Below are positions 13,096-46,589 of a stretch of 64,000 nucleotides of DNA, in pieces. The number at the start of each line of letters is the position of its first letter. Position 1 is the stretch's first letter. Position numbers and translations under genes: made by a program. Source of the stretch: an uncultured bacterium (GTDB taxonomy: Bacteria; Acidobacteriota; Thermoanaerobaculia; Multivoradales; J023); NCBI GenBank assembly GCA_965366625.1, contig CBDUGP010000002.1, positions 153,561 through 217,560 on the forward strand. Reading direction: 5' to 3'. The notes beneath the pieces were generated by a model. It ran no database searches and was not told where the DNA came from. It saw nothing but the letters and a program-made list of their open reading frames with translations.

Positions 13096-14274
13096 TCAAT
13101 AGTCGACGTAGCCCTTCTGTGCTCGGATCGAAAAATTCGCGCCACCGGCCTCCACCTTGACGTCGTGCCAGCTGCCGTCGTTTCTCGAGCGCGACGGATA
13201 GTAGCCGATCACATATTGCTCCCGAAGCTCATTCAGAATTCCTTCAAAGGCCTCTTCTGCTGCTTGAAGATTCTCCAGATCTACAATCCGGCCACCGCTG
13301 GATTCCACGGTGCGGGTCAAGAGTTTGTATTCTTCTTTGTAGGTCTCCGGATTTTTCCAAGCCGAGAGTCTTTGGGTTGGGTCTGCGCCGCCGGGATTGA
13401 TTCGAATCCAATAGATAAGGGCTCTGCTGCGTCGAGCCAACCAAAATACGTCGGCCATGCGCAGGCTGCTGTGGCTGTCGATGCCGTCAGACAGCACGAT
13501 CACGACCCGTCGGCCTTGGCGACTTTCCAGTCTCTTAAGTGCCAGGTACAAATGATCGTTTAACGACGTGCCCCCGGAGGCGTTAGCTTTGCTCAAACCC
13601 TCGGTCAAGATCTCGACGTCGTTTGAAAACGGGGTCGAATGAATCAGCCGATCGGCGAAAAGTAGCAAGCTGGCGTCGTCGATCTGCCGAAGACCACTCA
13701 AGAATGCTGTGGCTCCCCGCAGAGCATAGCGAAGCCTACGACCCTTCATGCTGGTGCTCGAGTCGATGAGCAAAGCAGCTGTCAGGCGGACATCACCTCG
13801 GGCAAAGGTCACGATCTGCTGCCGGAATTGATCGTCGTAGATCCGAAAATCTTCTTGCTCGAGGTTCAGAATTCGTTGACCTTGGCGGGTGACGGTCACA
13901 TAGAGCTGCTGGAGCTTGGCTTCGATCTCGTCGTCGATCCGGATCGCCGGGGTCACCATCAAAGCCGTGCCCACCTCGCCGTCGGCAGAGATGGCTTGGA
14001 CTTCAAATCTGTGGGGGCGATTCTCTTGACCGGTATCGATGCTGATCTGAAAGGGCGGCACCTGAAGCTCCCCCACCACCTGGCCATCGAAAAGGAATCG
14101 GACGATCGCCGCCTCCCCTTCAAGAATCTCCGCGCTGAGTTCGACACTACCGAAAGCCGGTTGGCCCGCGGGCGGTGAGGTGATGGTGACCGAGGGTGGT
14201 TCGGCCCGTGCTGTCGGGCAGAGCCACGTCGAGACGACCAGGGCAAGAGTCATCCATAGGGCCCAGGACTTCAT
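13096..14274 (-). CDS. Secreted Ig-like + VWA domain protein with intact MIDAS
   Basis: ATG at 14274 overlaps the upstream stop (ATGA). Signal peptide, Ig-like VTITSP domain, DSSTS, GGTSLND, LSDGID and QYVIGY motifs. Confidence 0.85.
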   Translation of the reverse strand: MKSWALWMTLALVVSTWLCPTARAEPPSVTITSPPAGQPAFGSVELSAEILEGEAAIVRFLFDGQVVGELQVPPFQISIDTGQENRPHRFEVQAISADGEVGTALMVTPAIRIDDEIEAKLQQLYVTVTRQGQRILNLEQEDFRIYDDQFRQQIVTFARGDVRLTAALLIDSSTSMKGRRLRYALRGATAFLSGLRQIDDASLLLFADRLIHSTPFSNDVEILTEGLSKANASGGTSLNDHLYLALKRLESRQGRRVVIVLSDGIDSHSSLRMADVFWLARRSRALIYWIRINPGGADPTQRLSAWKNPETYKEEYKLLTRTVESSGGRIVDLENLQAAEEAFEGILNELREQYVIGYYPSRSRNDGSWHDVKVEAGGANFSIRAQKGYVDY

Positions 14275-16487
14275 GACTTTGCCCCGGAATCTTTCGGCAC
14301 GAGTTCTTGCAGTCTGCTCAGGCGAATGCGGGCAGCTTCCAGAAGGCTTGCCCGTGTTTCGACGAGTTCTTGCTCCGGCCAACTGTCGTATTTTTTGCGC
14401 GGTGAGGGACCTTGGCCCGGCCGGGCTTGGACCTGATCGAGCAGCTCTAAGGATCTATCGGGCCGGCCTAGACGATCGTAGAGGTAGGCGATCAACACGA
14501 GGGTCCCTTCATCGGGTTCAGAAATCTGTTCCAACAGCTCGAGGGCTTCTGGAACTTGATCCAAAAAGAGATGAATACGCGCGAGTTCTTCATAGGCTAG
14601 TGAGCGAACCCAATCGGGACCGTCCAAGGTTATGACCCGCTTCAAGAAATCTCTGGATTGCAGCCGATTGCCTAGGCGTGCCGTATTCACGGCTAATCTT
14701 AGCCAAGCCACCGACATGTCCGGATAGCGGATAGTGAGTTGTTGGAGAGTCTGTTTTGATCGGCCATAGGCACCCAATCGCTCATAACCGCAGCCTAAGG
14801 CCAGCATTGCTGTTTTAGACGAGGGGTCCAGCTCGAGGGCACGGCGGTAGAGTCTTTGGCTGGTGGATGCCAAACCACCCGCTTGGAGATATCCAGCCAG
14901 GCTGGTCAAGGCCCGTGCAGCGACGATTTTCGAGCCTTGCCCGGATCCCTTTTCCGCATAGAGCTCGGCTAGCCGTTCCATCAAGACTCGACTGTGGGTG
15001 CCGAGGGAGAACAATCTTCGCCCACGGTAGGCCAAATAGAGGTCTTGATGAAGTTGGATCAGGGGCACGAGGCTCTCGGGATCGGTTTCAGCCAACGACT
15101 CGGCAAATTTAAATTCCGCGGTCTGAAGCAAAGCTGCTGCCTTTGACGAGCCTTCGTTGATCACGCGAGTCTCTAAATCCAACAGTCCGCTCATGGTCGT
15201 TGTGGTGCCGAGCTCGGTGACATCCGCTAATATTTCTCGATACTCGCGGGCTAACTTGTCGACCTTCCGGCCGCCCCGTTCTCGGATCGGGGCGTTTTCC
15301 ATTCGATCTGGAGAAGAAGGCCGTTCCGTCGGTGTTTCTCCCGTTCCTCGCCAACGAAGGTCCGACCACAGAAGGTTCTGCTCTCGGACACTGGAATCCA
15401 TCAGGTGGACGGCAGTCGCCGGCGAAACGATCGACGCGGGGACAGGTGGGCCTCCATCATTTCGGCTCTCACTTCGGCTCCCGGCATCGACCCTTAGGCC
15501 CGCTAGATATTGCACCCGCAATTCCATGGGACCCGGAGATAGGTCGGAGGGCGGTACGAACCGGGCTTCCACCAAAGCGCTGCCATCTCGCTCGACCCGA
15601 TCGATGAGGGTCAAGGGCAGGGTGGCGAGAAGCCTTTTGGGCTCCACGGATGAATCAAAAAGCAGCAGCTTGAAGCCGTCGGCGGCAGTGGGAATTCGTC
15701 CATGGAGATAGAGGGTAGACGGGTGATCAGGCACCAAGACCGGTCTCGCCGCGGGGCGAATAGCCGACTCCCCTATGCTGAACGGATACGGTTTTCGGCC
15801 CTGGGTCTTCAAACCTTCCAGGGGCTCGTTGATCAATCCGGCGAGCAGATCCTTGCTCCAAGGGCGGATCGGTATCCACGGCTCACGAAATTCAGGATCG
15901 GGAAGCAAGGGTGTCAACAACAGAGGATCATCAGGTTCCGGAACCGTCAAATCAATCTCACGCAAGCCGGCGGCTTTGCTTTGGAAATTGCGGGTCAAAA
16001 CCCTGAGGCGGTACGTGCCCGGAGCCAGAGCAAGCTCACCATAGTATTTGAGGCCGCTCTGCCAAACGATCTCTCCCAGACTCCCAACGTCGACCGCCAC
16101 CATCTCCGCGCGATAGTCCGCGATTTCGAAACCCTGCTCGCGCAAAGCGTAGACATAGATTTCCAGCCGGGTGGTGTCGGATTGGTTGAGTTCCAGGAAG
16201 CTGGTGCCGTCGATTTCGACGAACACCGCCACTCTCTGCTTCGCGGAATCAGATTCGCCTTCTTCGGCGGCAACCGTGAGCAGGGGCACAGCGAGGGCTT
16301 CCATGGCCAATTCCCCACCGGGATCGGCACGTAGGATCAAGGTCGCAATTTCGCCGGTCAGGCCCCGAAGCGCACGGGCTTGCAACGTTGAGGGGCCAAA
16401 TGGATCCGGAACCTCTTGGGCACCGGTAGCGAAGCTGATTAGCAGGAGTAGCGGGAAAAAAACAACTGAGCCGACAAATCGATTCAT
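14271..16487 (-). CDS. Secreted protein with N-terminal beta-rich domain and C-terminal TPR repeats
   Basis: Signal peptide, LAPGTYRLRV motif and TPR-like helices (YRRALELDP); 4-bp overlaps at both ends. Confidence 0.75.
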   Translation of the reverse strand: MNRFVGSVVFFPLLLLISFATGAQEVPDPFGPSTLQARALRGLTGEIATLILRADPGGELAMEALAVPLLTVAAEEGESDSAKQRVAVFVEIDGTSFLELNQSDTTRLEIYVYALREQGFEIADYRAEMVAVDVGSLGEIVWQSGLKYYGELALAPGTYRLRVLTRNFQSKAAGLREIDLTVPEPDDPLLLTPLLPDPEFREPWIPIRPWSKDLLAGLINEPLEGLKTQGRKPYPFSIGESAIRPAARPVLVPDHPSTLYLHGRIPTAADGFKLLLFDSSVEPKRLLATLPLTLIDRVERDGSALVEARFVPPSDLSPGPMELRVQYLAGLRVDAGSRSESRNDGGPPVPASIVSPATAVHLMDSSVREQNLLWSDLRWRGTGETPTERPSSPDRMENAPIRERGGRKVDKLAREYREILADVTELGTTTTMSGLLDLETRVINEGSSKAAALLQTAEFKFAESLAETDPESLVPLIQLHQDLYLAYRGRRLFSLGTHSRVLMERLAELYAEKGSGQGSKIVAARALTSLAGYLQAGGLASTSQRLYRRALELDPSSKTAMLALGCGYERLGAYGRSKQTLQQLTIRYPDMSVAWLRLAVNTARLGNRLQSRDFLKRVITLDGPDWVRSLAYEELARIHLFLDQVPEALELLEQISEPDEGTLVLIAYLYDRLGRPDRSLELLDQVQARPGQGPSPRKKYDSWPEQELVETRASLLEAARIRLSRLQELVPKDSGAKS

Positions 16488-18265
16488 GGGCTACTAGTTT
16501 CGGTCGCATCGGCAAGTTTGCCAATCGTGAGATCAAGGTGGGTAGTGGAATCGAGCTGGGCGAGCCTGTCCCGAATTCCAATGGCGATACGCTTGGGTCC
16601 CGGCTCCATGTTCAGCTCCAGAGGATATCCGGCGCTTTGGGCCATCACTTGGAGAATCTGGTCGTTCGGAATTTGCAAAGGTATCTCCACCTGACGGAAC
16701 GGAGAGATATTCTGGTTGGTTTCGTCTCTGACGACGACAAAGAGAGTTAGGCGGCCCGAATGATGGGTCTCTTCCGGCAGCAACAGGATCTTTTCAAACG
16801 GAATCTGAACCATGATCGAAACTTGGAAATTGCCACCGGCCGTCGGCTCCTGTTTCATCGAGGTCATGGCGATGTGCATGGGGTTGTCACCGAGATCGTA
16901 GAAGAGGGAGGACAAGATGCGATCTTGGAGTGTATCCAATGGATCTTTCTCCCTGACGCTCTTACCGTAGCGCACGGTCCAATCTTTGTTTTTGACCTTG
17001 ATCACGAGATCCCGTCGGTCATTGGTGATCACCGTCGGTTGGTAGCCGAGGGAATAGAAGGTCGAAAAATCGCTCCGAACTTGCTCCAGAAGCCCCTCGA
17101 TATTGGTGCTTCGCGTGTAGGCCGTGCCACCGGTTTCGTCGGCCATGCGCAGCAGGGATTCCTCGAGCGAGAATTGCTCCAGAGTGCCCACCAACTTTGA
17201 CGATCCGCCGCTTCCACTGGTGGTAAAGCTGCCTTGGGATTCCGCAGAGCCTGAGGCACGGGAGAGCAAGCTTCCAGGGGAAATGGGATAAATAGCCACC
17301 TTGGTAGCCGCCGCGTGTTGAACGAATTGATCCAGCTCTTTGGTCAGAGAGTAGTTCCCGGCACTGACGGACTGCAGATTCAGTTGATCGTCGCTGAAGC
17401 CGTTGCGGAAGAACCAATCGAGGAATTTGTCCTGCCAGGCTTGGGTGAGAGCATCAGCGGGATTCATCGACATGCCGTCACTGATATAGATCAGAGCCTT
17501 TCTTCCCTTCATGCCCGCCAATGAGCTGACGAATCCAGCCATAGCTTCTAGGGCCCCTTTGGAGCGGGTCATCCTCTCTTCCGCAAATCCCCGAATTTGG
17601 GTCGCGTAGTCCACGGCCTCGAGGCGGGTACGTTCCAGTTCGGCGCTGTTGTCACGAAATCCCTGCGACCTCGCCACCAACTTTGCGGATTGAATGCTGC
17701 GCAATAACTGCTGAAGCGTGGCATGGGTCCTCAAGCTGGGTCCGGTGGTCTTCTCCAATCGGTCGAGAACCTTGCCCACGGTTTCGGGGTCGCGGGTGAA
17801 TCCCGTTTCCAGCTTCAACGAGTCGCCGATACTGACGATCAGGATCTGGTCGTCCGGCTTTAGGCTGCGGTCGAGGAATTGGCGGAGATTGGTAAAAATC
17901 CGATTGCGGTTTTGGGGGGCGACGTGGGCATTGTCCACCACCACCACCAAATTGAGATTCTGGGTCTCTGGTTGTGAGGGAACCGTGGTGGCGGAATCTA
18001 AAGCCATACCGGTTTGATGAGTTGCCGTCGAGCCTTCAACCGCGAAAAAATTGGATATCTCAACGAGTTCGCCGTTTTCAAACAGGTCGAAGTCGTCTGG
18101 TCCTAGACCGAGGACCGGCTGACCCTCTGAATCGACCACCACCGCCTCGATATTGACGACCTGAACATCTACGGTGTCAAAGAAGAGGTTGGTGTCCGAT
18201 GAATCGGCAACCAAGCTTGAGCCGTATGAAAGAAGGGCGAGCGAGATCAGCGCGAGCTTCTGCAT
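16484..18265 (-). CDS. Acidobacterial-type VWA domain protein
   Basis: GAAGGAG RBS before ATG 18265; signal peptide; VNIEAVV..G.PV.GL..DDF, GRKALIYISDG, ADETGG and FYSLGY motifs. Confidence 0.85.
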   Translation of the reverse strand: MQKLALISLALLSYGSSLVADSSDTNLFFDTVDVQVVNIEAVVVDSEGQPVLGLGPDDFDLFENGELVEISNFFAVEGSTATHQTGMALDSATTVPSQPETQNLNLVVVVDNAHVAPQNRNRIFTNLRQFLDRSLKPDDQILIVSIGDSLKLETGFTRDPETVGKVLDRLEKTTGPSLRTHATLQQLLRSIQSAKLVARSQGFRDNSAELERTRLEAVDYATQIRGFAEERMTRSKGALEAMAGFVSSLAGMKGRKALIYISDGMSMNPADALTQAWQDKFLDWFFRNGFSDDQLNLQSVSAGNYSLTKELDQFVQHAAATKVAIYPISPGSLLSRASGSAESQGSFTTSGSGGSSKLVGTLEQFSLEESLLRMADETGGTAYTRSTNIEGLLEQVRSDFSTFYSLGYQPTVITNDRRDLVIKVKNKDWTVRYGKSVREKDPLDTLQDRILSSLFYDLGDNPMHIAMTSMKQEPTAGGNFQVSIMVQIPFEKILLLPEETHHSGRLTLFVVVRDETNQNISPFRQVEIPLQIPNDQILQVMAQSAGYPLELNMEPGPKRIAIGIRDRLAQLDSTTHLDLTIGKLADATETSSP

Positions 18266-18540
18266 GGATATCTCCTTCAAACAGGTCTCGAAGCAAAAAG
18301 TCCCGAAGCGAGAAAATAAAGTCGGCATGTTGATGCTAAAACATCGTTAGTCTCAAAGGTATGCTTCTTGGCCCTAACTTACTGCAGTCCGTCACCTGCA
18401 GGAGCTGAACCCTGAAGCCGTCCGTGGGATAATAGTCCCCGGCGGGGCATTTTCTAGGGATCCAGGTAAATCGGCTCCTGACGAGTGGCTCTCCCACTCG
18501 ATCAAGTTCCCGTTCTCCAGCCCTGTTTCAGGAGGAAATA

Positions 18541-19812
18541 ATGAAAAAACGATTCCATATCGGCCTAATGTCGACAGCGATGGCTCTGCTTCTCAGTTTC
18601 GTCGCCACAACAGTTCAGGCCCAATCAGTCTCTCGGGTCGGTTTTACCGTCAACGACGAGGCCGGCAATCCGCTCCAAGATGTCACCATCACCGCCAGTC
18701 ACCCGCCCACGGGTTTGGTGATCGAAAGAACCACCAATAAAAAGGGCAAGGCGACCTTCGCGTTCCGGGACGGCAGCCTCACCTATGAGGTCAGCCTGTC
18801 GTTGGAGGGTTACGATCCCGCCACGACCTCGCTGAAACCGAGAACCGGCGCCGTTAGCTACCAGACCTATACCCTCTACAAGACAAACTCTCGCAAGGCG
18901 GTTCCGAGTGATGAAGGCGGAACCCGAGAGATTCCGTTGACCCCGGCCCAAGTGACATTCAACGAAGGCGTGACCGCGCTCAAATCCAGCGACTTGGCCA
19001 CCGCCAAGGCGAGCTTTCTCAAAGCCTACGAAATGGACCCCGAGCTCTACCAGGCTCACTCGGCTTTGGCCGCTATTTACTTGGAAGAGAAAGACTTCCA
19101 AAGCGCCAAAGCAAGCGCGGAGATCATGATTGCGAAAGAGCCCGGTAGCGGTCGGGGCTATCGGATGCTTTACGAAGCCCTCTCGGGTCTCGGCGACCAA
19201 GAAGCCGCGGACGAGCTGCTGGCGAAAATTTCCGAACTCGAATCGAGCGCGGATGCCGTGCCTCTGATCTATAACGAAGGTGCGGAAGCCATGAGGATGG
19301 GTGATTTGAACCGGGCGCGGGAGCGGCTGGAGAAAGCCTATTCTTTGAGTCCGGAGCTGAACCAAACTGTACGGCTGCTGGCCTTGGTTTACCTCGACGA
19401 CAAAGACTTCCAAAAGGCCGCTGAATTTGCCGAGAAGGCGATTGCAGCAGATCCTGAAGATTTGACGATGAAGAAGGTTCGGCTCGATGCTTACCGTGGA
19501 CTCGGCGACACTGCCAAAGCCGAAGAGGCCTTCGAGGACGTCGCCGCCGCGGATCCCACAGCGCTGATTTCGGGCCTGTTCAAAGGCGGCCAGGAGCAAT
19601 TCAACGGCGGTGATATGGATTCTGCAGTCGGATCTTTCAAGCAGATTTTGGAAATTGATCCCGACCATGGAATGACCCACTATTTGCTCGGCCTTTGTTA
19701 CGTCAACATGGGGAAGAATGCCGACGCCAAGTCGCATTTCCAGCGCTTCATCACGTTGATGCCCGATCATGAGAATGCGGCAACCGCCAAGGAAATGTTG
19801 AGCTTCCTGTGA
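18541..19812 (+). CDS. Secreted carboxypeptidase-regulatory-like (transthyretin-like) domain + TPR protein
   Basis: AGGAGG RBS, signal peptide, V.DEAGNPL..V..TNKKG beta-sandwich and many TPR repeats. Confidence 0.85.
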   Translation: MKKRFHIGLMSTAMALLLSFVATTVQAQSVSRVGFTVNDEAGNPLQDVTITASHPPTGLVIERTTNKKGKATFAFRDGSLTYEVSLSLEGYDPATTSLKPRTGAVSYQTYTLYKTNSRKAVPSDEGGTREIPLTPAQVTFNEGVTALKSSDLATAKASFLKAYEMDPELYQAHSALAAIYLEEKDFQSAKASAEIMIAKEPGSGRGYRMLYEALSGLGDQEAADELLAKISELESSADAVPLIYNEGAEAMRMGDLNRARERLEKAYSLSPELNQTVRLLALVYLDDKDFQKAAEFAEKAIAADPEDLTMKKVRLDAYRGLGDTAKAEEAFEDVAAADPTALISGLFKGGQEQFNGGDMDSAVGSFKQILEIDPDHGMTHYLLGLCYVNMGKNADAKSHFQRFITLMPDHENAATAKEMLSFL

Positions 19813-25268: not shown

Positions 25269-25396
25269 TCTGAAGACTCCTCTGTGATGTGCTTCCTCTT
25301 CTCCTCAAGGAAGCGGTTTCTGCTGAACACCGTTTCTGTCCGATCTCCTGTGGAGCTGTCGGCGAACGGTGATAAGAACCCGTCAGTCTATGTCTG

Positions 25397-25413
25397 AGCA
25401 AGAATCAGACCAG
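25397..25413 (-). promoter_or_regulatory. Putative sigma54 -24/-12 promoter of the TonB receptor gene
   Basis: Minus strand reads CTGGTCTGATTCTTGCT, i.e. GG-N10-GC with TTGC, about 130 bp upstream of the start. Confidence 0.6.
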
Positions 25414-25520
25414 TGTGTCGGGCGATGGCCGCAAGCGCCATAAACTTAATGAAATCAACACTTATGGAAGCCGTCTAAAAACCTCAACGACTTCGACAAG
25501 ACCGCAAATCTATAATTTTG

Positions 25521-25543
25521 AATCAAACCGTTGAGTTCTCAAC
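25521..25543. promoter_or_regulatory. IHF-consensus site overlapping a palindrome (candidate activator site)
   Basis: AATCAAACCGTTG matches WATCAANNNNTTR; GTTGAG-TT-CTCAAC at 25530-25543. Confidence 0.45.
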
Positions 25544-25774
25544 AGGTGGCTGGATTGAACGGGGCCGTTGGAGGACCCTTAGAGCAATCTGTGCCGTGTA
25601 TCTGAACCGACGATAATATCGAGTTTTGGGGCCTTTAGGCTGTCCTTCGTCCCGTCTTTTTGTCTTGTGAGCCCAGGAGGTGCGTCTCGGGTCGACGACC
25701 TATCCCCTTCGATATACTCTCGGCCGCCTGCTGCGGCTCTTTGCCCGCGAGCACCGAATTCAGGAGACTCTCAA

Positions 25775-35000: not shown

Positions 35001-35341
35001 AGGAAAAAGTGCAGCGCTTCCAAACGGATCCGGATTGCCGGCTCTTCCTGATCAGCTTGAAAGCCGGTGGTGTGGGCTTGAATCTCACCGCTGCGGACTA
35101 CGTCTTCATTCTGGATCCGTGGTGGAATCCCGCGGTCGAAGCCCAGGCCGTGGATCGCGCCCATCGGATCGGCCAAACTCGTCCGGTCTTTGCCTATCGA
35201 TTGATCAGCCGGGGTACGGTCGAAGAGAAAATCATGGAGCTACAGGGCTCGAAGAAACAGCTGGCCGACGCGATCCTCTCCGCCGACAAGAGCTTGATCG
35301 GGGACCTCTCGGCCGACGATTTGAAGATTCTTCTCAGCTAA
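32030..35341 (+). CDS. SWIM zinc-finger SNF2-family helicase/ATPase
   Basis: CQCP..CKH SWIM finger, LADDMGLGKT, DEAQ, LTGTP, FSQF and QAVDRAHRIGQ motifs. Confidence 0.95.
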   Translation: MSFEKRCSHEIATNDRERGKLYFEQRRIRIDASDDYGLNATVRGAGRTYEVQIDWFDSEHSGILTASCQCPRYMAGRLCKHIWATLLTADQRGMGKKVAGNGQLQVFLESSDAEALIDDEDVRIGQPAVAQKEKLSWRQKFRSLREQIEEELPLAGKDASDPRRFAHYRINVLKSMNSNQLVVDVFQRMGKEEGATLRRMGISDWENGSLFSEDREFLRVLLAMPRTGGASAADRSEAYLSGVVPPVLYESIIPRLSATGRFGWIHGVDEAHVEHHELEWDIGSPWEFVLEVEREETGDQVLTRISGRLERDSEVSELSQPLLLLEGIVVFRERVARLETDRHYSWISMIRRDGEVKIPESEIDAMLEDLWSMPVLPPLDIPVQWLLDEIFVDPTPGITFRTMGSDQLPPMLEGNIWFDYDGFLVDDKYEKRAGSKDRIVDRPHGRLIFRDIEREKDLREDLKEHGLLIFQPEEGSKAKRARYRARLRDFPEIATRLIDHGWLVDAEGQRLRRISKPQLSLSVSASVDWFELEGEVEYGNTTASLPAILSAIRRGEFFVRLDDGTHGLLPEEWIERYAALAASIVEPSDAEEPVRFLPSQTLLLDNLLKGEDVELGRDFEKVRSQLQAFESIEAAKEPRGFKGTLRTYQQEGLGWLKFLKDNGFGGCLADDMGLGKTVQVLALLQLRRARPVPAWERLPSVIVVPRSLVHNWIEEAARFTPKLRLLNYTGPGREEFMDFFDEYDVIVTTYGTMRRDIEELQKIEFDYAILDEAQAIKNSSSQAAKACRQIRSQHRLALTGTPVENHLGELWSIFEFLNPGMLSQSVLKDLVGTDTDAEQLAAISAALKPFIFRRTKEQVLKDLPAKTELTLYCELDGEQLKLYDELRDHYRASLNERIEQVGLKKSKIQVLEALLRLRQAACHPGLIDSERSAEPSAKIDTLLEHLEEVLDEGHKALVFSQFTSLLSILRQRLDPRGVTYEYLDGRTRRRQEKVQRFQTDPDCRLFLISLKAGGVGLNLTAADYVFILDPWWNPAVEAQAVDRAHRIGQTRPVFAYRLISRGTVEEKIMELQGSKKQLADAILSADKSLIGDLSADDLKILLS

Positions 35342-38307: not shown

Positions 38308-38672
38308 TAAGGTCTCGCCGGAAAAGGAGCCCGATGCGCGGTCCCTCTCGACCTACCAGGTTCGCCGCCGTAACCGCCGGTTGGGCGAACTTGGGGCGAA
38401 CCCTACATCTGAGTCCGGTGAAGAGCTGCAGAGCTACCCGGAAGTCTCAGGTTTTCGCTTCGGAGCCGATCGCGCGGCCCACACAGGCCACAGAGATTCT
38501 TCATCTAAAAGGCAAATACGTGAGCACACATCGAAAAGCAAAGGAGATCCATCGACACAAATCGACCGACGAACACCTTCAGCATATAAGCCCGGCGCAA
38601 AGTAGAGAACAAAGAATTTATCTTGACTATAAATCTGTTTCAACGGTCAGGGCTGAATGTACCCACGGCGCT

Positions 38673-40373
38673 CTATTGGGTATTTGGTGGCAGTCGCCTG
38701 AGTGCCTCTTGAGCTGGTTGGAACTCGGGGTCCAACTCCATGGCCAAACGCAGCCGACCCTTGGCGCTGTCCAGATCTCCTCGCTGCAGATCCAGACCCG
38801 CTAGGCTCATGAGGGCACGGGCTTTCAGCGGATCCGAAACGGAATCATCTTCGACCAACGCCGAAAGGTGAATGGCGGCCCGTTGCGAATCGCCGAGTTG
38901 TACCAAGGCGCCTGCGATCCGAAGCCGTTCGGCTGGATCCGTCGGAGGGTTTTCGTCCAGCAGGCGCGCCATTTCCGCCGCTGCTTCGTTGCGACGGCCT
39001 AGGCTCACCAATATTTGGGCTCGCTTGCCCCGCGCTTGCGGATGGTCCGGCTCTAAGGCGAGAACTCGATCGAGGCTCGCCAGGGCCTCGGCCAATAAGC
39101 CCTGGGATTGTTGGGCGTTGGCGAGAGCCAACCAAGAAGGGGAAAAGTCCGGGTGGGCGGCCAAAACCCTGCGCAGGGTCGTCACTGCCTCAGCGGCCTG
39201 CCCTGTTTGAAGCAGCAGAATCGCCAAGTCGTTGGCGAGGGTCGGCGAGCTGGGATCGAGTTCCGCGGCTCGACGGTAAAAACGGATGGCCGTCGGCAGA
39301 TCTCCTTTTTCTGCCCAGCCTCTCCCGAGGGCCTGGTGGGCGATCGGATCCTGTGGCGCGAGTTCCACGGCTCGGCGGAACTCCGCGATAGCGGTGTCTA
39401 TGTCGCCGGCGAAGCGGGCGTGTTGGCCGCGGGTGATAAAAGCCGCCGCGCCGGTGGTCAGCTCACCCAGACGGGCGTCCAGGGGATCGATGCAGCGTGC
39501 TCGTCCACCGATGCTCTTTTCTCGCTCTGCGCTACGCTGTAAGTAGACCTGGGCTTCTTTTTCTCGCCCGGCCCGTTTTAGAGCCTGTCCCAAAGGAAAC
39601 AACACCTGCAACGCATCGCTTTGGATATGCAGGGTACGCTCGAAATGCTCCACAGCCTCCGACGGTCGATCTTCGGTCAAAGCCAGCTGTCCCAGCTCGA
39701 AGTAGGCCGCCGGGCATCGTCGATCGTCCGAAGCGGCCCGTTCGAGCCAGGATCTCGCTTTGTCGCCTTGGTTGGCCTGCCGCAGCACCCGGCCCAAACG
39801 CCAAGCCGTGGCTGTGTGGATGTGGTCGGTCTGCTCGGAAGCCGGGGCGGCATCGATTCTCTTCCAGGCGAGCTCGAAAAGCTCGATCGCTTCCGGCAAG
39901 CGCCCCAGCCGTTGGGCCACGGAGCCGGCGTAATAGCTCCACTCGGCAGAAAGGGGGTCAAGGCGGCGGGCTAGATCGTAGCTCTGCTGGGCTGCCGGCA
40001 AGAGATCGTAGGCGTGGTAGAGCATGGCCAGCGAGCCGATTTTCGCGCCCAGCTCGCTCCCTCTTAGCCCCGAGCCGAGATGTTGCAATGCGACCTCGCG
40101 AGCGTTCGACAGCTGAAGGCGAACGGACGGATCCATGTGGGAGAGATCGGGATCGGGGAGTTCGGACGCCGATAGCTCAGAGCTGCCGGCAGGTCTGTCG
40201 ACTTCAACCGTCTCGAAATCATTCTCGGCAGCAACCGTCTCGGCAGCGTTGCCCTCGGCGACCTGGTCTGTACCCATGGGGTCCCCAGCCGCCTTGTCGT
40301 TCTTGTTTCCATCGCAGCCGATTATGAGGCTGATCACGAGCCCGAACGCGGGAATGAGGTGGCGGTGGGTCAT
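38673..40373 (-). CDS. TPR-repeat lipoprotein
   Basis: IIGC lipobox, LPDPDLS..DP.VR N-domain, TPRs and a DPL..L motif. Confidence 0.87.
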   Translation of the reverse strand: MTHRHLIPAFGLVISLIIGCDGNKNDKAAGDPMGTDQVAEGNAAETVAAENDFETVEVDRPAGSSELSASELPDPDLSHMDPSVRLQLSNAREVALQHLGSGLRGSELGAKIGSLAMLYHAYDLLPAAQQSYDLARRLDPLSAEWSYYAGSVAQRLGRLPEAIELFELAWKRIDAAPASEQTDHIHTATAWRLGRVLRQANQGDKARSWLERAASDDRRCPAAYFELGQLALTEDRPSEAVEHFERTLHIQSDALQVLFPLGQALKRAGREKEAQVYLQRSAEREKSIGGRARCIDPLDARLGELTTGAAAFITRGQHARFAGDIDTAIAEFRRAVELAPQDPIAHQALGRGWAEKGDLPTAIRFYRRAAELDPSSPTLANDLAILLLQTGQAAEAVTTLRRVLAAHPDFSPSWLALANAQQSQGLLAEALASLDRVLALEPDHPQARGKRAQILVSLGRRNEAAAEMARLLDENPPTDPAERLRIAGALVQLGDSQRAAIHLSALVEDDSVSDPLKARALMSLAGLDLQRGDLDSAKGRLRLAMELDPEFQPAQEALRRLPPNTQ

Positions 40374-42271
40374 GGTTCACTTACCAGGGGCCCTGGCCCT
40401 TGAAGCCCCCGGCCTTGGATAAGGGCCGTATATTGGTTTGTGGTGAGTATTTCAAAGACCTCCAGGGTACCGTCGACCCACCGAATTTCGACCTGTTGTG
40501 CTGAGGCTTGTTGTGCTGAGGCCTGTTGGGCTGAGGCTGAGTCGGCTTCCAAGACGACGAGCCTGCGTGGATCCCGGGCGCTGGCATAGCTGCCGTCAGT
40601 GCCGATTCGCACTCTGCGCGGAGAAATAATAGTAGCCCCTAGAGCGTCTCGTCCGTGGATGTCCAGCAGACGCAGCCCGAGCCATCGACGGGAGCCGGAA
40701 TGGTGATCCCCGGAACGATTGATCAGCAGTTCGAGCGGCCCGGCATTGTTGGAAATCACCAAATCGGAATCGCCGTCATTGTCCACATCGCCGACGGCCA
40801 GGCCTCTGCCCACCGATTTTTTCGCGAAGGCCAGACCTGCCTTTTCAGGATCCATAAGCTCGAAGCCCGTGCCGGTATTCCGGTAGAGCTGTTTGTGCAT
40901 TTTGAGCGGATGAGGCTCGCCCGCCTCGAGCTGCTCGGGAATTACCTTGACCGCTCCGGCCACCGCCGCGACGTCTAATCGGCCGTCCAGATCGACGTCT
41001 AGAAAGGCGACTCCAAAACCGGTCGAGTCCCAACTTGGGCCACCCAACCCGCTGGATCGGCTGCGGTCGATGAACCCACCACGACCGTCGTTGGCGTAAT
41101 AGGTGTTGGTTTCCAGCTCCAAATGGGTGAGCAAAAGGTCGTCGTCGCCGTCGCCATCTGGGTCGCCGGCGACGATGCCCATGCCCGCCTCGGCTTGACC
41201 TTCTTGATTCACGGAAATTCCGGCGGGCACGGCTATCTCCACGAAACCGCCCGAGCTTCCCGACACTCGGTTGTGCCACAAATGATTGGGCATGCCGTCG
41301 TTGGCCACCGCTAGATCCAGTCGGCCGTCGTCATCGAAGTCGAAGACCACGACTCCCAGGCCGGCGGCCGGCTCGGCGACGATGCCGAGCTTGCGGGTCA
41401 CGTCTTCGAAGGTGCCGTCGCCTCGATTCCTGTACAGGCGGTCGGCCACGGCGGGATGGGTCAAGGGACCGCAATAGTCGAGCATTCCAGTGAGTGATTT
41501 ACACGGTTTAGCCCGGGCAATGCTGAAGTCCACGTAGTGAACGACGAAGAGATCGAGATCGCCGTCCCGATCGAAGTCGAAGAAGGCCGCAGAAACCGAC
41601 CACTTCTCCGAGCCCAGGGACGCACGAGTTGTGAAATCCTCGAAGGTGCCGTCGCCTCGATTGCGCCACAGTTGGTCGGGACCGTCGTTCATCACATAGA
41701 GATCCGGAAAGCCGTCGTTGTCCACGTCGCCCACTGCCACGCCCATGCCGTAGCCATCGGCAACGATGCCCGACTCGGCGGTGACGTCGGTGAAGATCAG
41801 TTCTCCGCTGGGCTCGACCTCATTGCGGTATAAGCGATCGATCCAAGGTGGCTCAGGGGGCGTGAACACGGCCGCCTCGGCGGATTGGCCGGGATTTACC
41901 ATCCGCCCCTGGACCACATAGAGATCGAGATCCCCGTCGCGATCGAAATCGATCCAGGCCAATCCGGAGCCCATCATTTCCGAATAGAGCCGTTGTCCGG
42001 TCATGCCGTTGAAATGTCGAAAGCCACCGAGGCCGGCGGCGGCGGTGTGATCTTCAAAAATAGGTAGGGTCGAGTCCGGTGTTGGAGCCGGCACGCCGCC
42101 TTGAGAGCCCAGGGCAGTGGATTCCGTACGCTCAGCGGAGTCGGCAGATTTCTCGGCCGGTGCGGCGCATCCGACGACCATTCCGACCACGGCCAGTGCA
42201 AGAGCCGCCATTCCAAGCCCCGCCAGAAAGCCGGTCGGTTTCGTCGATCCGAGCGAGTCAGTGCCCATCAT
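40370..42271 (-). CDS. CRTAC1-family FG-GAP beta-propeller + ASPIC/UnbV lipoprotein
   Basis: VVGC lipobox and DxDxDGxxD repeats; close paralogue of 27529-29337; contains an ASAQQ tandem insert. Confidence 0.9.
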   Translation of the reverse strand: MMGTDSLGSTKPTGFLAGLGMAALALAVVGMVVGCAAPAEKSADSAERTESTALGSQGGVPAPTPDSTLPIFEDHTAAAGLGGFRHFNGMTGQRLYSEMMGSGLAWIDFDRDGDLDLYVVQGRMVNPGQSAEAAVFTPPEPPWIDRLYRNEVEPSGELIFTDVTAESGIVADGYGMGVAVGDVDNDGFPDLYVMNDGPDQLWRNRGDGTFEDFTTRASLGSEKWSVSAAFFDFDRDGDLDLFVVHYVDFSIARAKPCKSLTGMLDYCGPLTHPAVADRLYRNRGDGTFEDVTRKLGIVAEPAAGLGVVVFDFDDDGRLDLAVANDGMPNHLWHNRVSGSSGGFVEIAVPAGISVNQEGQAEAGMGIVAGDPDGDGDDDLLLTHLELETNTYYANDGRGGFIDRSRSSGLGGPSWDSTGFGVAFLDVDLDGRLDVAAVAGAVKVIPEQLEAGEPHPLKMHKQLYRNTGTGFELMDPEKAGLAFAKKSVGRGLAVGDVDNDGDSDLVISNNAGPLELLINRSGDHHSGSRRWLGLRLLDIHGRDALGATIISPRRVRIGTDGSYASARDPRRLVVLEADSASAQQASAQQASAQQVEIRWVDGTLEVFEILTTNQYTALIQGRGLQGPGPLVSEP

Positions 42272-44478
42272 GAGCCGCCCATCCAGCCGGCCAGGGTGTT
42301 GCGGGCGAGCTGTTGTTGTTGCGGATTTAGATCCCCGGATTCAAGAGCCCGGCTCAGGGCGGCGATCGCGTCTTGTCGTTTGCCGTTGCGATCGAGTACG
42401 AGGGCGTAGCTGAGTTCGAAGAATCCGTTTCGCTCCTGGCTTAGGCCTAGGGCAAATAGATGCTCGGCTTGTCCGGTATCGCCCTTCTGCATGTACAACA
42501 TGGCGGCTTTGAATAGACCCTCGGGCCGGTCGTCGTAGAGGCCGCGGTCGACGAGATCCTGGAGGACGATCAAGGAGTTTTCGAGGTCCCGGCGATGGGC
42601 GAAGAAGTCGACCATCCGTTCGGCCAAGGCCAGATTGTCGGGCTCTAATCGACGCGCGCGGCCATAGGCCTGGGCCGCCCCATCCGGATCGGATGCTTCG
42701 AGGCTTCTGGCGAGCAGAATCCAGGCTTGAGACAGCTCGGGATATTGCTCCGTGAGCTGTCGGCTCACCGCCGCCGCCCGATCCATCTTCTTCTTGTCGA
42801 TGAGATATTTCGCCAGCTCGTAGCGTAGGGGATAAACGCCCGGCAGGGCCTCTCCCCCTCGGACCAAGGCAGAAATCGCTTGGTCGGTCCGATTTCGCTC
42901 GACCGCAATTCGGTGCTCAAAGAGAAAGAAGGTCGGCAGAATTTGGTCCGCGTATTTCTGGCGCAGGGTGATCAACTCCCGTTCGGCGTCGTCGGTTCGG
43001 CCTTGGGTGATCAAAGCTTCGATTTCTCGTAGCCGGGCGTCGAGCACCAGGCCGTCTTTGGGATCCAAGGGAGCCCCCTTGCCGCGCCCGCCGCTCGACA
43101 AGTACCCCAGGCTCTCCAACTTTTGGGCGTCCTCGTCGGTCAGCTGCCGGCGATCCCCGGAATCGGCCGGACCCGAAGATCCGAGCAGGAGATCGCGCAG
43201 CTCTTGGTCTAGACGGTGGTACGTGCGGCGCTCGGCAGAGACCAGATTACGTTGTTCTCGGGGATCACGCTCGATGTCGTAAAGCTCGGGATTGGGAACC
43301 GAGATCAATTTTCGATCCCCGGAGTAGAGCCCTGTGAGCGGAGCCCAATTTCGGTCTTCTTGACCCAATAACGTTTCGAAGTAGATTTGGCGCGGTGCTG
43401 GTTCGGCAACCCCGTCCAGCAAAGGGGCGAAACTCGTACCGTCCATGGGCTCCAAACCGTCCACGGACTGTTCCACGCCCAGAAGCTCCAGCAACGTGGG
43501 TTTCAAATCCACCAAACCGATCCGCGAACTCACTACCCGACCCGGCTCGATGCCCGGACCGCTCAGGATCAGCGGCACGTGAAGGGCATGGTGGTAAGCG
43601 GTCAAACCGTGGCCATGTTCGCCATGCTCACCGAAGGCCTCGCCGTGATCGGAGGTCAGCACCACCAAAGTAGAGTCCAAAAGGCCGAGAGAATCCAGAT
43701 CGGAGATCATCTCGCCGATTTGGGCATCCACAAAGGCGACCTCTCCGTCATAGGGCTCGGCGTGTTGAGATCGATAGGGCTCCGGGGGCGAATACGGAAG
43801 ATGGGGATCGTAGAAATGCGCCCAATAAAAAAAGGGCTTTGACCCGGAAGGCTGCTCCTTCAACCAGCGACGCCACTTTGCCAACACCTGATCCGCAGGA
43901 ATCTCGGTGTTGAAAGCCCGTAGGATCTCGTCCTGGGCGAGGGTGTCGTCGTAGGTGTCGAATCCTTGGGCCAAGCCGAATTTTTCCAGCAGCACGAACG
44001 CGCCGAGGGCCGCGCCGGTGGCGAAACCTTGTCGACTCAAACACTCTGCCAGGGTCGTCTCATCGTCGGAAAGCACATAGGTGCCGTTGTTTCGCACTCC
44101 GGTGCGGATCGGCAGACGCCCGGTCATCATGGAGGCGTGGGACGGCAGGGTCATGGGCACATGGCTCAGGGCTCGGTCCATTCGGGTGCCTTGCTGGGCC
44201 AGCCTGTCCATGGCAGGGGTCGCAGCGGGTGCATAGCCGTAGGCTCCGATCCGATCCGCCCTCAGGGTATCGACGGTTATCAAGAGCAAGTGGATCGGGT
44301 CGTTGCCGCCGCGCACCCTCGGTGATTCGCCATCATCCGTGCCTACGTCTGTGCCGATATGGGGGCCGTCCGAGGTTGGAGCCGGGTCCTGTGGGGTGCA
44401 ACCGGCACCCAGAACGGCAAGGCACACGACTGCGAGCAGAAACCGTCGCGTTTTCCCGTTGCCCCGTTCGGTGATCAT
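42268..44478 (-). CDS. Sulfatase-like (alkaline phosphatase superfamily) lipoprotein fused to TPRs, Thr at the nucleophile position
   Basis: GAGC lipobox; DTLRAD, TLPSHASMMTG, DPH.PY, SDHGE and LESLGY motifs; C-terminal TPRs. Confidence 0.9.
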   Translation of the reverse strand: MITERGNGKTRRFLLAVVCLAVLGAGCTPQDPAPTSDGPHIGTDVGTDDGESPRVRGGNDPIHLLLITVDTLRADRIGAYGYAPAATPAMDRLAQQGTRMDRALSHVPMTLPSHASMMTGRLPIRTGVRNNGTYVLSDDETTLAECLSRQGFATGAALGAFVLLEKFGLAQGFDTYDDTLAQDEILRAFNTEIPADQVLAKWRRWLKEQPSGSKPFFYWAHFYDPHLPYSPPEPYRSQHAEPYDGEVAFVDAQIGEMISDLDSLGLLDSTLVVLTSDHGEAFGEHGEHGHGLTAYHHALHVPLILSGPGIEPGRVVSSRIGLVDLKPTLLELLGVEQSVDGLEPMDGTSFAPLLDGVAEPAPRQIYFETLLGQEDRNWAPLTGLYSGDRKLISVPNPELYDIERDPREQRNLVSAERRTYHRLDQELRDLLLGSSGPADSGDRRQLTDEDAQKLESLGYLSSGGRGKGAPLDPKDGLVLDARLREIEALITQGRTDDAERELITLRQKYADQILPTFFLFEHRIAVERNRTDQAISALVRGGEALPGVYPLRYELAKYLIDKKKMDRAAAVSRQLTEQYPELSQAWILLARSLEASDPDGAAQAYGRARRLEPDNLALAERMVDFFAHRRDLENSLIVLQDLVDRGLYDDRPEGLFKAAMLYMQKGDTGQAEHLFALGLSQERNGFFELSYALVLDRNGKRQDAIAALSRALESGDLNPQQQQLARNTLAGWMGGS

Positions 44479-46589
44479 CGGCCTTCTCCGCCAATGGGTG
44501 AGGTGACGATCAAATCGTCTGGCCCACCGGCGCGAAAGGCCTGCCGGTGTTCGTAGAGAGCCAGAAAGCTCTCCAAGCGACTCGCGAGGTCTTCTCGGCC
44601 GGCTCTTTTGGCCTCCTGGATCAAATTCCGTTGAATGATGGATGCTTGCTCGAAATCACCGTTCTCAGCGTGGGCCATGGCTAGGGTCTCGCCCCTTTTC
44701 ATCGACGGTTGGGCATCGAAAGCTTGGTTCGCCCATCGTACGGCCTCGTCCCCGTTTCGAACACCACCGTCTGGACAGGCGGCGAGCAAACGGGCCAAGG
44801 CGTGGCTCCATTCCTGATGACTCTTGCTGTTGCTGTCACTCGTTGAAGCGAGGGCAGCCTTCAAGCTGCGGGCGGCCTCCCGATACCGACCGGCCAGCAA
44901 CAAAGCGGTGACCTCACCGCGGCGTCCGGCCGTGGAGGTGGGATTCTGGGCTAGGACGTCACCGTATACCCGGATCGCGTCATCGAGTCGGCCGAGATGG
45001 CCCAAAACCGCTGCCATTCCCAAGCTTGCAGCGGTCAAATCCGGCTGTAGCTCGAGCGCCCGCGTGTAGTGACCTAGGGCAGAATCGAAGCTTCCTTGAA
45101 CGCTGAGCCGATCGGCGGTCGCTTTGTGTAAGGCGGCTTGGTCCCCGGGCTCGGAGGCGCTTTCCAAGGCCTGGCTCAGCAACGAGCCGGCTTCGGAGCC
45201 ACGACCCATCCGATCGAGCAAGGCTGCCAAGGGCGGTGCCGCCCGGGCGCGACCGGATGGGTGATCGTAGGCGCGTTTGAGATTCACGAGCGCTTCCTCT
45301 TGTCGGCCCAACCGCTCCAAGACGGCTGCCCGTCTTACCCGAACGTCGTGGCTCTCGGGGCTGAGATCCAAAGCCGCGGAATATTCTTTGAGGGCCTCGG
45401 CAAAGAGGCCTTGTCGTGCCAGCAGGTTGCCGAGCTTGGTGCGGGCCGCGGTAAAGGAGGTGTCGAGTTCGCGGGCGCGTCGAAAGTGGGTTTCTGCCTT
45501 GGAGTCTTGGTCCCTGGCGACCCATAGGCCGCCGAGCAAATACCGAAAGCGGGCTTCATGGGCTGGATTGGAGCGCCAATAGTCGTCTTCGACCAGCAGC
45601 TGCTCCATGCGTTCAGGGGCGCCGCCGATGTCGGCCAGTTTGGCGAGGGCGAAACCGAGGTCGGCGACGGGATCGAAGTCGTCCCGGGTCACCCGTGAGC
45701 GCACCACCTCCAACGAGGTCAGGCTCATCAAGCTTCCCAGCTCCGCAACCAACGGATCGTCGAATGACGGCCGTTGATCGCCCCGTAAACGCAAGTGTCG
45801 CTCGGCTTGATCGCGTTTGCCCAAACGCAACAAGGTCTGAGAGAGGGGGTAGTGCACGGCGGTGGCAGCGGGGTCGAGATCCAAAGTCTGCTGGAAGAGC
45901 TGTGCTGCCCGCTCGTTTTCACCACGGGCGGCCGCCACCCGAGCCCTTGCGAAAGCCACTGCGGCTCGGCTGGAAGGTTGCGGGTCCAAACCCTCGACTT
46001 GCGACAGATCAGAGGCCGCCTCATCGACTCGGTCCAGCTCGATCAAAGCATCGATGCGATGCAATCGGGCGGCAAGGTTGCCCGGCTGCAATCGGATCGC
46101 TTCAGTGTAGGCGTCGGCGGCCTCGGCCAATTTGGAATCGTCCTGTCGAGCGACGCCCAAAAAATAAGGCCAGCGAAAACTTGTCGGGTCTGCTCGCTTA
46201 GCGGTTTCGAAGCAATCGGCAGCGGATTCGTAGAGGCCGATGGCCGCCAGATGGGCTCCCAGCTCGCCGAAAGCCTTAGCCACGGCTGCCGGCTCCAGAG
46301 GTTGTCGCTCGAGGGTCGAAGTCGCATGGGCGTGTAGCCGAGCAATGCGGTCGCGGGTCGCGGGCTCCTGTCGTTCGAGTTCCGGCAGGGCTACCGGCAC
46401 TGCCGCGTCGGCGGTGAATGGAGGCGCAGGGCTGTCTTTCTGGCCGCAACCGACCCAAAGGAGAAGAAAAAGGAGAAAAAGAATCACGGCCGAGGAGGCG
46501 GCTCTGAAACCACCCGGTCTGAAACTACCCGGTCTGAAGCCCCGTGGTCCCCGGGTCGGTCGGGACGAGCGTGAAACGAAATCAGTCAT
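44475..46589 (-). CDS. TPR-repeat lipoprotein
   Basis: WVGC lipobox, TPRs, FDDPLVAEL and LARLLAACP motifs; paralogue of the 29334 and 38673 proteins. Confidence 0.87.
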   Translation of the reverse strand: MTDFVSRSSRPTRGPRGFRPGSFRPGGFRAASSAVILFLLFLLLWVGCGQKDSPAPPFTADAAVPVALPELERQEPATRDRIARLHAHATSTLERQPLEPAAVAKAFGELGAHLAAIGLYESAADCFETAKRADPTSFRWPYFLGVARQDDSKLAEAADAYTEAIRLQPGNLAARLHRIDALIELDRVDEAASDLSQVEGLDPQPSSRAAVAFARARVAAARGENERAAQLFQQTLDLDPAATAVHYPLSQTLLRLGKRDQAERHLRLRGDQRPSFDDPLVAELGSLMSLTSLEVVRSRVTRDDFDPVADLGFALAKLADIGGAPERMEQLLVEDDYWRSNPAHEARFRYLLGGLWVARDQDSKAETHFRRARELDTSFTAARTKLGNLLARQGLFAEALKEYSAALDLSPESHDVRVRRAAVLERLGRQEEALVNLKRAYDHPSGRARAAPPLAALLDRMGRGSEAGSLLSQALESASEPGDQAALHKATADRLSVQGSFDSALGHYTRALELQPDLTAASLGMAAVLGHLGRLDDAIRVYGDVLAQNPTSTAGRRGEVTALLLAGRYREAARSLKAALASTSDSNSKSHQEWSHALARLLAACPDGGVRNGDEAVRWANQAFDAQPSMKRGETLAMAHAENGDFEQASIIQRNLIQEAKRAGREDLASRLESFLALYEHRQAFRAGGPDDLIVTSPIGGEGR

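Follow-up and report, generated by a model that had tools for sequence, protein, structure and literature searches.

Does the cluster of exported-protein genes that surrounds an Oar-type TonB-dependent receptor (TBDR) in an uncultured acidobacterium encode one integrated machine, or is it a neighbourhood of separate modules? The stretch of DNA that raises this question (G000:C2:153561-217560, 64,000 nucleotides, referred to as a whole as the window) belongs to a 10.0-Mb assembly of 255 contigs from a sediment acidobacterium, whose relatives are metagenome-assembled genomes labelled Thermoanaerobaculia or Acidobacteriota. The interval at window positions 13096-46589 holds 15 genes: 13 encode exported proteins and two encode cytoplasmic proteins. 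A sequence-only reading had proposed that the 13 coupled genes form stoichiometric complexes serving the receptor, as an analogue of SusC/SusD loci built from other folds. We favour a different answer, with a probability of roughly 0.55: the interval brings together autonomous exported modules in a conserved neighbourhood, a model of substrate capture and processing included, rather than encoding one stoichiometric machine. The best-supported new points are a phylum-wide, multi-copy pair of lipoproteins, one an FG-GAP propeller and the other built of tetratricopeptide repeats (TPRs), together with an autonomous triad of a von Willebrand factor A (VWA) protein, a scaffold and a second VWA protein, in which one VWA domain has an intact metal-ion-dependent adhesion site (MIDAS). 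The genes are named by operon as follows, with the two interposed cytoplasmic genes and one gene outside the interval.

A1, 16484..18265 (longest open reading frame to 18328), minus strand: exported acidobact_VWFA protein with a non-MIDAS VWA domain
A2, 14271..16487, minus strand: exported protein with two beta-sandwich domains and a TPR superhelix (Ig-Ig-TPR)
A3, 13096..14274, minus strand: exported protein with a Big_7 Ig domain and a VWA domain, MIDAS intact
B1, 18541..19812, plus strand: exported protein with a CarboxypepD_reg domain and TPRs (Pfam)
B2, 19809..22157, plus strand: SGNH-like hydrolase fused to TPRs, with an N-terminal transmembrane anchor
TBDR, 22326..25268, minus strand: Oar-type receptor with CarboxypepD_reg, Plug and OMP_b-brl_4 (Pfam)
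D1, 25775..27532, plus strand: exported acidobact_VWFA protein with a non-MIDAS VWA domain
D2, 27529..29337, plus strand: CRTAC1-like lipoprotein with an FG-GAP propeller and UnbV_ASPIC (Pfam)
D3, 29334..31442, plus strand: TPR lipoprotein of the CRTAC-partner family (Pfam; lipobox by eye)
SWIM/SNF2 helicase, 32030..35341, plus strand: cytoplasmic, interposed, probably unrelated (Pfam)
Hybrid histidine kinase with three PAS domains, 35548..38307, minus strand: cytoplasmic (Pfam)
G4, 38673..40373, minus strand: TPR lipoprotein of the CRTAC-partner family, with a lipobox and the N-terminal partner motif
G3, 40370..42271, minus strand: CRTAC1-like FG-GAP lipoprotein (FG-GAP_3, 150.5 bits)
G2, 42268..44478, minus strand: lipoprotein with an alkaline-phosphatase-superfamily (Sulfatase-fold) domain bearing TLPSH, fused to TPRs
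G1, 44475..46589, minus strand: TPR lipoprotein of the CRTAC-partner family (Pfam), a full-length D3 homologue
Third CRTAC1-like gene, 61358..63412, plus strand: solo, outside the 13096-46589 interval, with FG-GAP_3 and UnbV_ASPIC matches

Gene content was read from the listing of open reading frames, Pfam and NCBIfam scans and inspection of start sites. The 13 exported genes lie in four operons, A (minus), B (plus), D (plus) and G (minus), around the single Oar-type TBDR, as the sequence-only reading had held; its inventory was right, but it overlooked the helicase and the histidine kinase inside the interval. Its claim that all operon genes are joined by 4-bp overlaps also stands. The eight intra-operon junctions are all overlaps (ATGA seven times, GTGA once, between B1 and B2), while such overlaps are found at 336 of 3652 open frames of at least 400 codons in the genome (9.2%); the frequency in the operons is therefore far above chance. 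The receptor gene is monocistronic, with gaps of 168 bp and 506 bp to its neighbours. By eye, a lipobox can be discerned in six proteins (D2, D3, G1, G2, G3 and G4), a signal peptide in six others (A1, A2, A3, B1, the TBDR and D1, that of A1 following the ATG at 18265) and a single N-terminal transmembrane anchor in B2.

The propeller-TPR pair occurs twice in the interval, as D2-D3 and as G3-G4 with G1. D2 matches FG-GAP_3 (169.8 bits) and then UnbV_ASPIC (41.6 bits), the domain order by which CRTAC1/ASPIC proteins are defined, and it matches cartilage acidic protein 1 (PDB 9etn, E 2e-14). G3, which had also been called a CRTAC1 protein, lacks a Pfam match to UnbV_ASPIC, yet its identity to D2 is 46% over the full length (623 columns). 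The partner TPR family, defined here, comprises D3, G1 and G4, which share adjacency to a CRTAC gene, full-length mutual homology (27% identity over 700 columns between D3 and G1) and a motif, read by eye, just after the signal peptide. Elsewhere in the genome the association is frequent: 17 of the 26 CRTAC genes have a same-strand TPR open reading frame within 300 bp, although TPR-positive frames number only 96 among 31818 crude ones. A same-strand adjacent TPR gene likewise lies beside CRTAC in 17 of 20 loci drawn from 20 other acidobacterial families, and homologues of D2 are present in 133 of 301 sampled genomes of the phylum (this tally, like that of 20 TBDR-homologue loci below, includes the unpublished genomes G053, G078 and G180). 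The two genes are also found as one. TPR Pfam matches occur in 58 of the best 120 longer D2 homologues listed from a large protein collection, and among these 120 there are 42 fusions in the gene order CRTAC then TPR and five in the reverse order, with homology to the partner family. The fusion proteins align from about residue 21-70 of the partner TPR protein, nearly its start; internal signal peptides are missing from most linkers; three cases appear to be frameshift artefacts, and in one a lipobox is retained.

Structure prediction gives the pair a specific interface. The smallest complete pair of the genome, on contig C55, was co-folded from alignments of 68 and 39 sequences (66 and 39 rows kept) and scored 0.87, while the best of three controls scored 0.00. 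The co-fold mark is reached by 58 of 80 solved complexes and 2 of 110 mismatched pairs, counts that hold only roughly because our own alignments were used. The C55 runs agree in at least 74% of contacts, and the partner pLDDT is at least 88. In the predicted interface, the conserved N-terminal helix of the TPR protein faces a Cys-x(9)-Cys loop and an insertion of the propeller. In the C55 pair the predicted contacts map to CRTAC residues 239-245, 326-338, 364-393 and 422-432 and to TPR residues 63-77, 112-123, 148-152, 181-184 and 239-267. Both features are present in 36 of 36 CRTAC proteins with a partner gene, including D2 and G3. Among the solo CRTAC proteins, the Cys pair is absent in 5 of 7, and Cys pair and insertion are both absent in 3 of 7, including the product of the gene at 61358-63412, for which no TPR neighbour was found. 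The adjacency, the fusions, the co-fold and interface loops that track the partner gene together lead us to predict that the CRTAC-TPR pair is very likely a physical heterodimer. To this extent the proposal that coupled genes encode complexes is supported; its extension to a single 13-protein machine is not. In the heterodimer as modelled, a CRTAC1-like propeller lipoprotein of the calcium-binding FG-GAP type would be held by a dedicated TPR lipoprotein, whose N-terminal helix and first repeats would clamp the disulfide-type loop and the insertion, and both lipoproteins would hang from the membrane by flexible linkers.

The TPR parts of the two fused hydrolases were considered as further members of the partner family, but the idea found no support: the alignment of B2 to G4 is confined to the C-terminal half of G4, and G2 has no BLAST match to D3, G1 or G4 at 1e-3. 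A search of the ESM Atlas with G4 returned generic TPR clusters only. Other long CRTAC forms depart from the TPR pattern. P0060, named a Thermoanaerobaculia protein, is a CRTAC homologue fused to PPIase (rotamase) domains, and further long forms bear ankyrin repeats or peptidase domains; the propeller has therefore been combined with several kinds of partner domain. The vertebrate CRTAC1/ASPIC protein (PDB 9etn) shares the FG-GAP propeller and UnbV_ASPIC with the bacterial forms, which differ from it in being lipoproteins with a dedicated TPR partner or TPR fusion and in having no match to an EGF domain in the Pfam scan. To our knowledge, the vertebrate member is still without a clear molecular function.

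The second module is the triad A1-A2-A3, which would combine a non-MIDAS VWA protein, an Ig-Ig-TPR scaffold and an Ig-plus-MIDAS-VWA protein. A1, A3 and D1 all belong to TIGR03436 (acidobact_VWFA), scoring 172.7, 139.6 and 205.1 bits against a cut-off of 81.25 bits, and A1 and D1 are 30% identical over 575 columns. The VWA domains of the A1/D1 type have large insertions and carry VDNxH at the MIDAS place: DxSxS is replaced by VDNAH in A1 and by IDNLH in D1, and likewise in six paralogues. A3 and its orthologues, in contrast, are VWA proteins of the MIDAS type. A3 matches Big_7 and VWA_2 in Pfam, and its D171-x-S173-x-S175, GGT and S262-D263-G264 blocks are invariant or nearly so in 10 orthologues. 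With an intact MIDAS in A3 and none in A1 or D1, A3 is thus, judging from its residues, likely the ligand-binding head of the triad. A2 has a Pfam TPR match at residues 525-690 only. Its AlphaFold2 (AF2) model (pLDDT 83.2, pTM 0.74) adds beta domains at 35-210 and 240-365 and helical repeats at 400-730; orthologues retain residues 25-210 and 380-730, and short forms retain 380-730 alone. In a Foldseek search TPR proteins dominate the matches of the model; the beta domains show only a weak likeness to C-terminal barrels of transglutaminases and to alpha-2-macroglobulin domains, which gives no functional lead.

The triad recurs largely by itself. All 10 loci with an A3 orthologue have an A2-like gene immediately upstream, an A1-type VWA domain is joined to A2 in one protein of 1090-1400 amino acids in at least seven loci, and the genome has four such triads (on C2, C22, C83 and C84, with the first two genes fused on C84). 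With an A3 profile built from a five-sequence alignment, 80 loci were collected. A2 accompanies A3 in 76 of them and an A1/D1-type VWA gene in 42, while a TBDR gene is found in 12, CRTAC in 7, B1 in 6 and a G2-like gene in 6. In the 43 loci with full 10-kb flanks the corresponding numbers are 42, 29, 8, 5, 5 and 4.

The adhesive folds of these proteins suggest another explanation, in which MIDAS-type VWA proteins and integrin-type FG-GAP propellers form tethered adhesion or matrix modules that work independently of transport, with D1-D2 as an integrin-like head. The full MIDAS of A3, whose profile matches the fimbrial protein Mfa5, ITIH and integrin I domains, is consistent with it, as are the relationship of D2 to CRTAC1, an extracellular-matrix protein, the coupling of VWA and CRTAC genes in D1-D2 and in another locus (L084), and the many modules that have no receptor nearby. 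The D operon does resemble an integrin head (an alpha-subunit FG-GAP propeller with a beta-subunit I-like VWA domain) in encoding a VWA protein and a propeller in overlapping genes. However, neither D1 nor A1 has the MIDAS serines, the partner that modelling supports for the propeller is a TPR protein, and adhesion alone accounts neither for the hydrolase fusions nor for the enrichment near TBDR genes. We regard adhesion as possible but rather unlikely.

The third kind of module would be the TPR-fused hydrolases, B2 as an SGNH esterase and G2 as a phosphoesterase or phosphodiesterase-like enzyme with a threonine nucleophile. B2 scores 28.7 bits for Lipase_GDSL_2, below the cut-off of 32.9, and GGS, GHN and DHVH (DxxH) blocks are visible by eye. 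G2 had been described as a sulfatase fused to TPRs; the fold and the fusion are as described (Sulfatase 166.9 bits, Phosphodiest 66.7 bits), but the enzyme assignment is probably wrong. Type I (formylglycine) sulfatases have the signature C/S-x-P-x-R, and the T-L-P-S-H of G2, which aligns to C-S-P-S-R of the iota-carrageenan sulfatase 6pt4, has Thr for Cys and His for Arg. The TLPSH motif is common to four TPR-fused paralogues and to four TBDR-adjacent homologues in other families, and presumably resembles the Thr-nucleophile motif of nucleotide pyrophosphatase/phosphodiesterases. From its residues, the safe statement is that G2 is a protein without the sulfatase signature. Lipoproteins of this TLPSH alkaline-phosphatase-superfamily/TPR type directly adjoin TBDR homologues in 3 of 20 loci (L055, L057 and L059). 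In the first of these (G182:C2:18000-37999, positions 2718-15165), an Oar-type TBDR gene followed by a gene for such a lipoprotein is present as a tandem duplicate. B1, with its CarboxypepD_reg and TPR domains, is another companion of the receptor: paralogues lie beside Oar-type TBDR genes on contigs C47 (107 bp away) and C33, and a B1-like gene directly adjoins a TBDR gene in L135, L145 and L149.

How far the modules travel together was judged in the genome and its relatives from our own calling of open reading frames, phmmer searches with the window proteins and family searches. The genome has 25 Plug matches, 25 UnbV_ASPIC matches, 26 CRTAC-type genes and 35 acidobact_VWFA proteins over cut-off. 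A paralogous ensemble on contig C33 (TPR, CRTAC, TPR, TBDR, VWA, B1-like gene, VWA) and similar ensembles in other genera and families bear out the repeated parts list that had been proposed. Collinearity extends across the entire window in the closest relative (G006); in G007, G011, G016 and G017, from four genera of the family, the TBDR, triad, CRTAC-TPR and B1 genes are found together though rearranged; and a distant genome of another family (G122) bears nearly the whole ensemble. Beyond the family, the modules separate. The neighbourhood comparison across Acidobacteriota that had been suggested as a check thus has two sides: the parts of a module co-occur with one another, and facultatively with a TBDR gene, but the modules are mostly separate from each other.

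The recurrence of the whole set in five relatives, in G122 and on C33 is the chief point for a single integrated system, in which the 13 proteins would form stoichiometric complexes serving this TBDR, SusC/SusD-like but made of other folds; the N-terminal CarboxypepD_reg domain of the receptor also fits it. The modules are mostly found alone, however, two cytoplasmic genes split the interval and therefore place the G operon 13 kb away from the receptor gene, and the TPR genes go with the propeller rather than the barrel. An integrated system is accordingly judged very unlikely.

The link of the modules to receptors appears to be looser. The receptor of the window is of the Oar type, with CarboxypepD_reg, Plug and OMP_b-brl_4 all over their cut-offs. 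The genome has seven OMP_b-brl_4 TBDR genes, five of them within 6 kb of module genes, and the TBDR gene is divergent from the CRTAC operon here and in 5 of 5 same-family relatives examined. Other arrangements are found elsewhere: TBDR-CRTAC-TPR in L091, CRTAC-TBDR in L099, B1-TBDR-CRTAC-TPR in L135 and TBDR followed by a G2-like gene, twice, in L055. Receptor adjacency in several arrangements suggests a facultative functional link rather than a fixed machine. Five genomes from five families have 107 UnbV_ASPIC places between them; 31 have an OMP_b-brl_4 TBDR gene no more than about 10 kb away, compared with 8.8 by random placement, although this test counts clustered genes as independent and so overstates significance. 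Values exceed random placement in four of the five genomes (G198, 16 of 40; G025, 7 of 15; G284, 4 of 8; G016, 4 of 27). Of the service to receptors first proposed, what is supported is that Oar-type TBDR genes lie nearby more often than by chance, not one integrated system for one receptor. The receptor link could well be studied in G198, a complete 5.5-Mb genome from another acidobacterial family, in which UnbV_ASPIC places number 40 and Oar-type TBDR genes about 34.

Several further observations weigh against the favoured reading, some against its receptor part and some against the evidence for its modules. In G122, the fifth of these genomes, none of the 17 CRTAC places has an Oar-type TBDR gene within about 10 kb. 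No TBDR gene is found within 10 kb in 68 of the 80 triad loci, and 17 of the 20 CRTAC-TPR loci of other families have none in the fetched flanks (3 of 20 have one). Of 20 TBDR-homologue loci in other families, 14 have no module gene, two have weak matches only and four are clear (G122, L055, L057 and L059). The scan of the interval found no glycoside hydrolase, SusD-family or TonB/ExbBD gene. Since the housekeeping flanks are syntenic too (G016), local conservation may be plain vertical inheritance. The pair adjacency counts, which cover Acidobacteriota genomes, come from crudely called open reading frames and from families labelled by phmmer with the window proteins; the export signals were judged by eye, with no predictor; and the co-fold is a prediction made on the paralogous C55 pair, not on the window's own genes. 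The AF2 model of a natural fusion (P0027; pLDDT 88.2, pTM 0.64) does not settle a fixed arrangement of the domains. Sequencing runs that match window positions 22326-31442 comprise three DNA runs of one study and no RNA run.

The vertical inheritance just mentioned leads to the explanation that there is no functional link, and that the cluster grew by tandem expansion of large paralogue families in a vertically inherited, origin-proximal region. The size of the families in this genome (26 CRTAC, 35 acidobact_VWFA and 25 Plug matches) and the synteny of the flanking housekeeping genes in G016 accord with it, and a Solibacter genome paper lists ASPIC/UnbV, VWA and TonB receptor genes among paralogue expansions (PMC3174227). 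The adjacency of Oar-type TBDR genes nevertheless recurs in L091, L098, L099, L129 and L135, divergent or co-directional and in both orders, and exceeds random placement in most of the genomes compared; the absence of any link is improbable.

The direction of transport could also be the reverse of import, with the Oar-type receptor moving the module lipoproteins or exoproteins across the outer membrane. By analogy, a Myxococcus study reports that Oar is needed for PopC secretion (PMC6434023). In the window, six lipoproteins are encoded beside an Oar-type TBDR, and TPR_Slam scores over its cut-off in B1, D3, G1 and G4, which may be generic TPR similarity. Export is nonetheless judged very unlikely, as most modules have no TBDR neighbour, the precedent is a single one and surface exposure of the proteins is only putative.

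The favoured reading of autonomous modules can be worked out as a model of capture and processing. The propeller-TPR heterodimers, the VWA triads and the TPR-fused hydrolases, completed by B1 and the Oar-type TBDR, would serve as accessories, combined in varying sets, that capture extracellular polymers at the envelope and trim them, with the TPR part as a common docking element, and those encoded beside an Oar-type TBDR would hand their products to the receptor. A common substrate-capture role for Oar-type receptors is a reasonable but unproven model. It invites comparison with the SusC/SusD polysaccharide utilization loci (PULs) of Bacteroidota, where the TBDR likewise has a carboxypeptidase-regulatory-like domain at its N-terminus, a genome holds many paralogous copies of the locus and the clustered lipoproteins include helical-repeat proteins and hydrolases. 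Unlike those loci, the 13 proteins have no SusD-family match (E<=0.01) and no glycoside hydrolase match, TPR proteins are paired with a propeller, and most such pairs have no TBDR gene nearby. The interval is thus not a PUL of the SusC/SusD kind, and the analogy first drawn with SusC/SusD stays a working model. In its most far-reaching form, the model makes the modules a modular counterpart of PULs in Acidobacteriota: Oar-type TBDRs would be served by interchangeable TPR-docked heads (propeller/TPR heterodimers as binding units, MIDAS-VWA triads, and TPR-fused esterases and phosphoesterases), and the propeller-TPR heterodimer would be the ancestral working form of the CRTAC1 family. This extension is tentative, with a minority chance of being right; if true, it would explain the joint expansion of Oar-type receptor, CRTAC, VWA and TPR genes in the phylum.

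Other known systems share single features with the interval. In the Bat (Bacteroides aerotolerance) operon, the VWA proteins BatA and BatB are encoded with the TPR protein BatC, much as two VWA proteins and a TPR protein are encoded together here. Yet the scanned window proteins include no BatA N-terminal domain, MoxR or DUF58, the proteins here have signal peptides and belong to TIGR03436, and BatC matches are weak and far below cut-off; this is not a Bat operon. Myxococcus has CglB, a VWA adhesin that acts with Glt outer-membrane and TPR proteins, and the interval resembles the Oar and CglB/Glt systems in its Oar-type barrel and in a VWA adhesin-like protein encoded with TPR lipoproteins. 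The likeness to CglB/Glt is one of shared domains, for matches to GltE, Tgl and PrsT are far below cut-offs. Beta-propeller and TPR envelope proteins also occur together in the BAM (BamB/BamD) and Tol-Pal (TolB/CpoB) systems, where, as proposed here, a propeller and a TPR protein cooperate in the envelope. These are different families (the BamD and YbgF models match weakly, below cut-offs), and the pairs described here number up to 17 paralogues per genome.

Acidobacteriota are a dominant phylum of soils and sediments, and the genes for CRTAC/ASPIC, acidobacterial VWA, TPR and Oar-type TBDR proteins are among its largest unexplained paralogue families. In the literature found, supplements aside, there was no account of the CRTAC-TPR pair, of TIGR03436 proteins or of 'Multivoradales', and the papers found do not describe a function for the bacterial CRTAC forms. 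What would otherwise be a list of "hypothetical exported proteins" can now be sorted into a small number of modules open to experiment, namely the predicted propeller-TPR heterodimer, whose interface is mapped, and the VWA-scaffold-VWA triad. A probable mis-annotation is corrected as well, that of TPR-fused "sulfatases" without the sulfatase signature, which bears on metagenome claims of sulfated-glycan use. If the receptor link is true, it would outline a way in which the phylum could capture polymers with no need of SusD-type proteins.

The surroundings of the interval are largely housekeeping genes, among them dnaN, recF, gyrB and gyrA on the left and ThiI, PEPCK, PdxA and purD on the right. 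Window positions 840-13047 form an origin-type run (dnaN, recF, gyrB, gyrA, transaldolase, CAAX protease, M20 peptidase, CYTH and nucleotidyl transferase); the cluster starts about 5 kb past gyrA, and the same run adjoins it in G016. The two cytoplasmic genes differ in their constancy. The histidine kinase gene follows G4 in the same direction after a gap of 365 bp and likewise comes after the G4 homologue in G006 and G007 (with a gap of 103 bp in G007); the kinase may be a regulator of the G operon. Only G006 and G007 of the five relatives have the helicase gene inside the cluster, which lacks it in G011, G016 and G017; the product shows 96% identity to its counterpart in G006 and 70% to that in G007, and a second close copy is found on contig C20 (E 8.9e-246).

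Rfam at gathering thresholds gives no matches in the window and so no riboswitch clue to the substrate of the receptor, and promoter-like sites (7, compared with 6.4 in shuffled sequence) and terminator-like sites (20, compared with 19.5) are at the shuffled level. Long antisense open frames run through the TBDR gene (22770-24830, plus strand), B1 (18625-19770, minus strand) and the helicase gene (32954-34798, minus strand) and stay open in relatives; they are most likely a by-product of codon usage in GC-rich genes, not genes. Beyond G1, at 46963-51112 on the plus strand, lie genes for a trypsin-like peptidase of 442 amino acids and a PD40-repeat protein of 916 amino acids, homologues of which adjoin the cluster in G006, G011 (the peptidase) and G016 (the PD40 protein).

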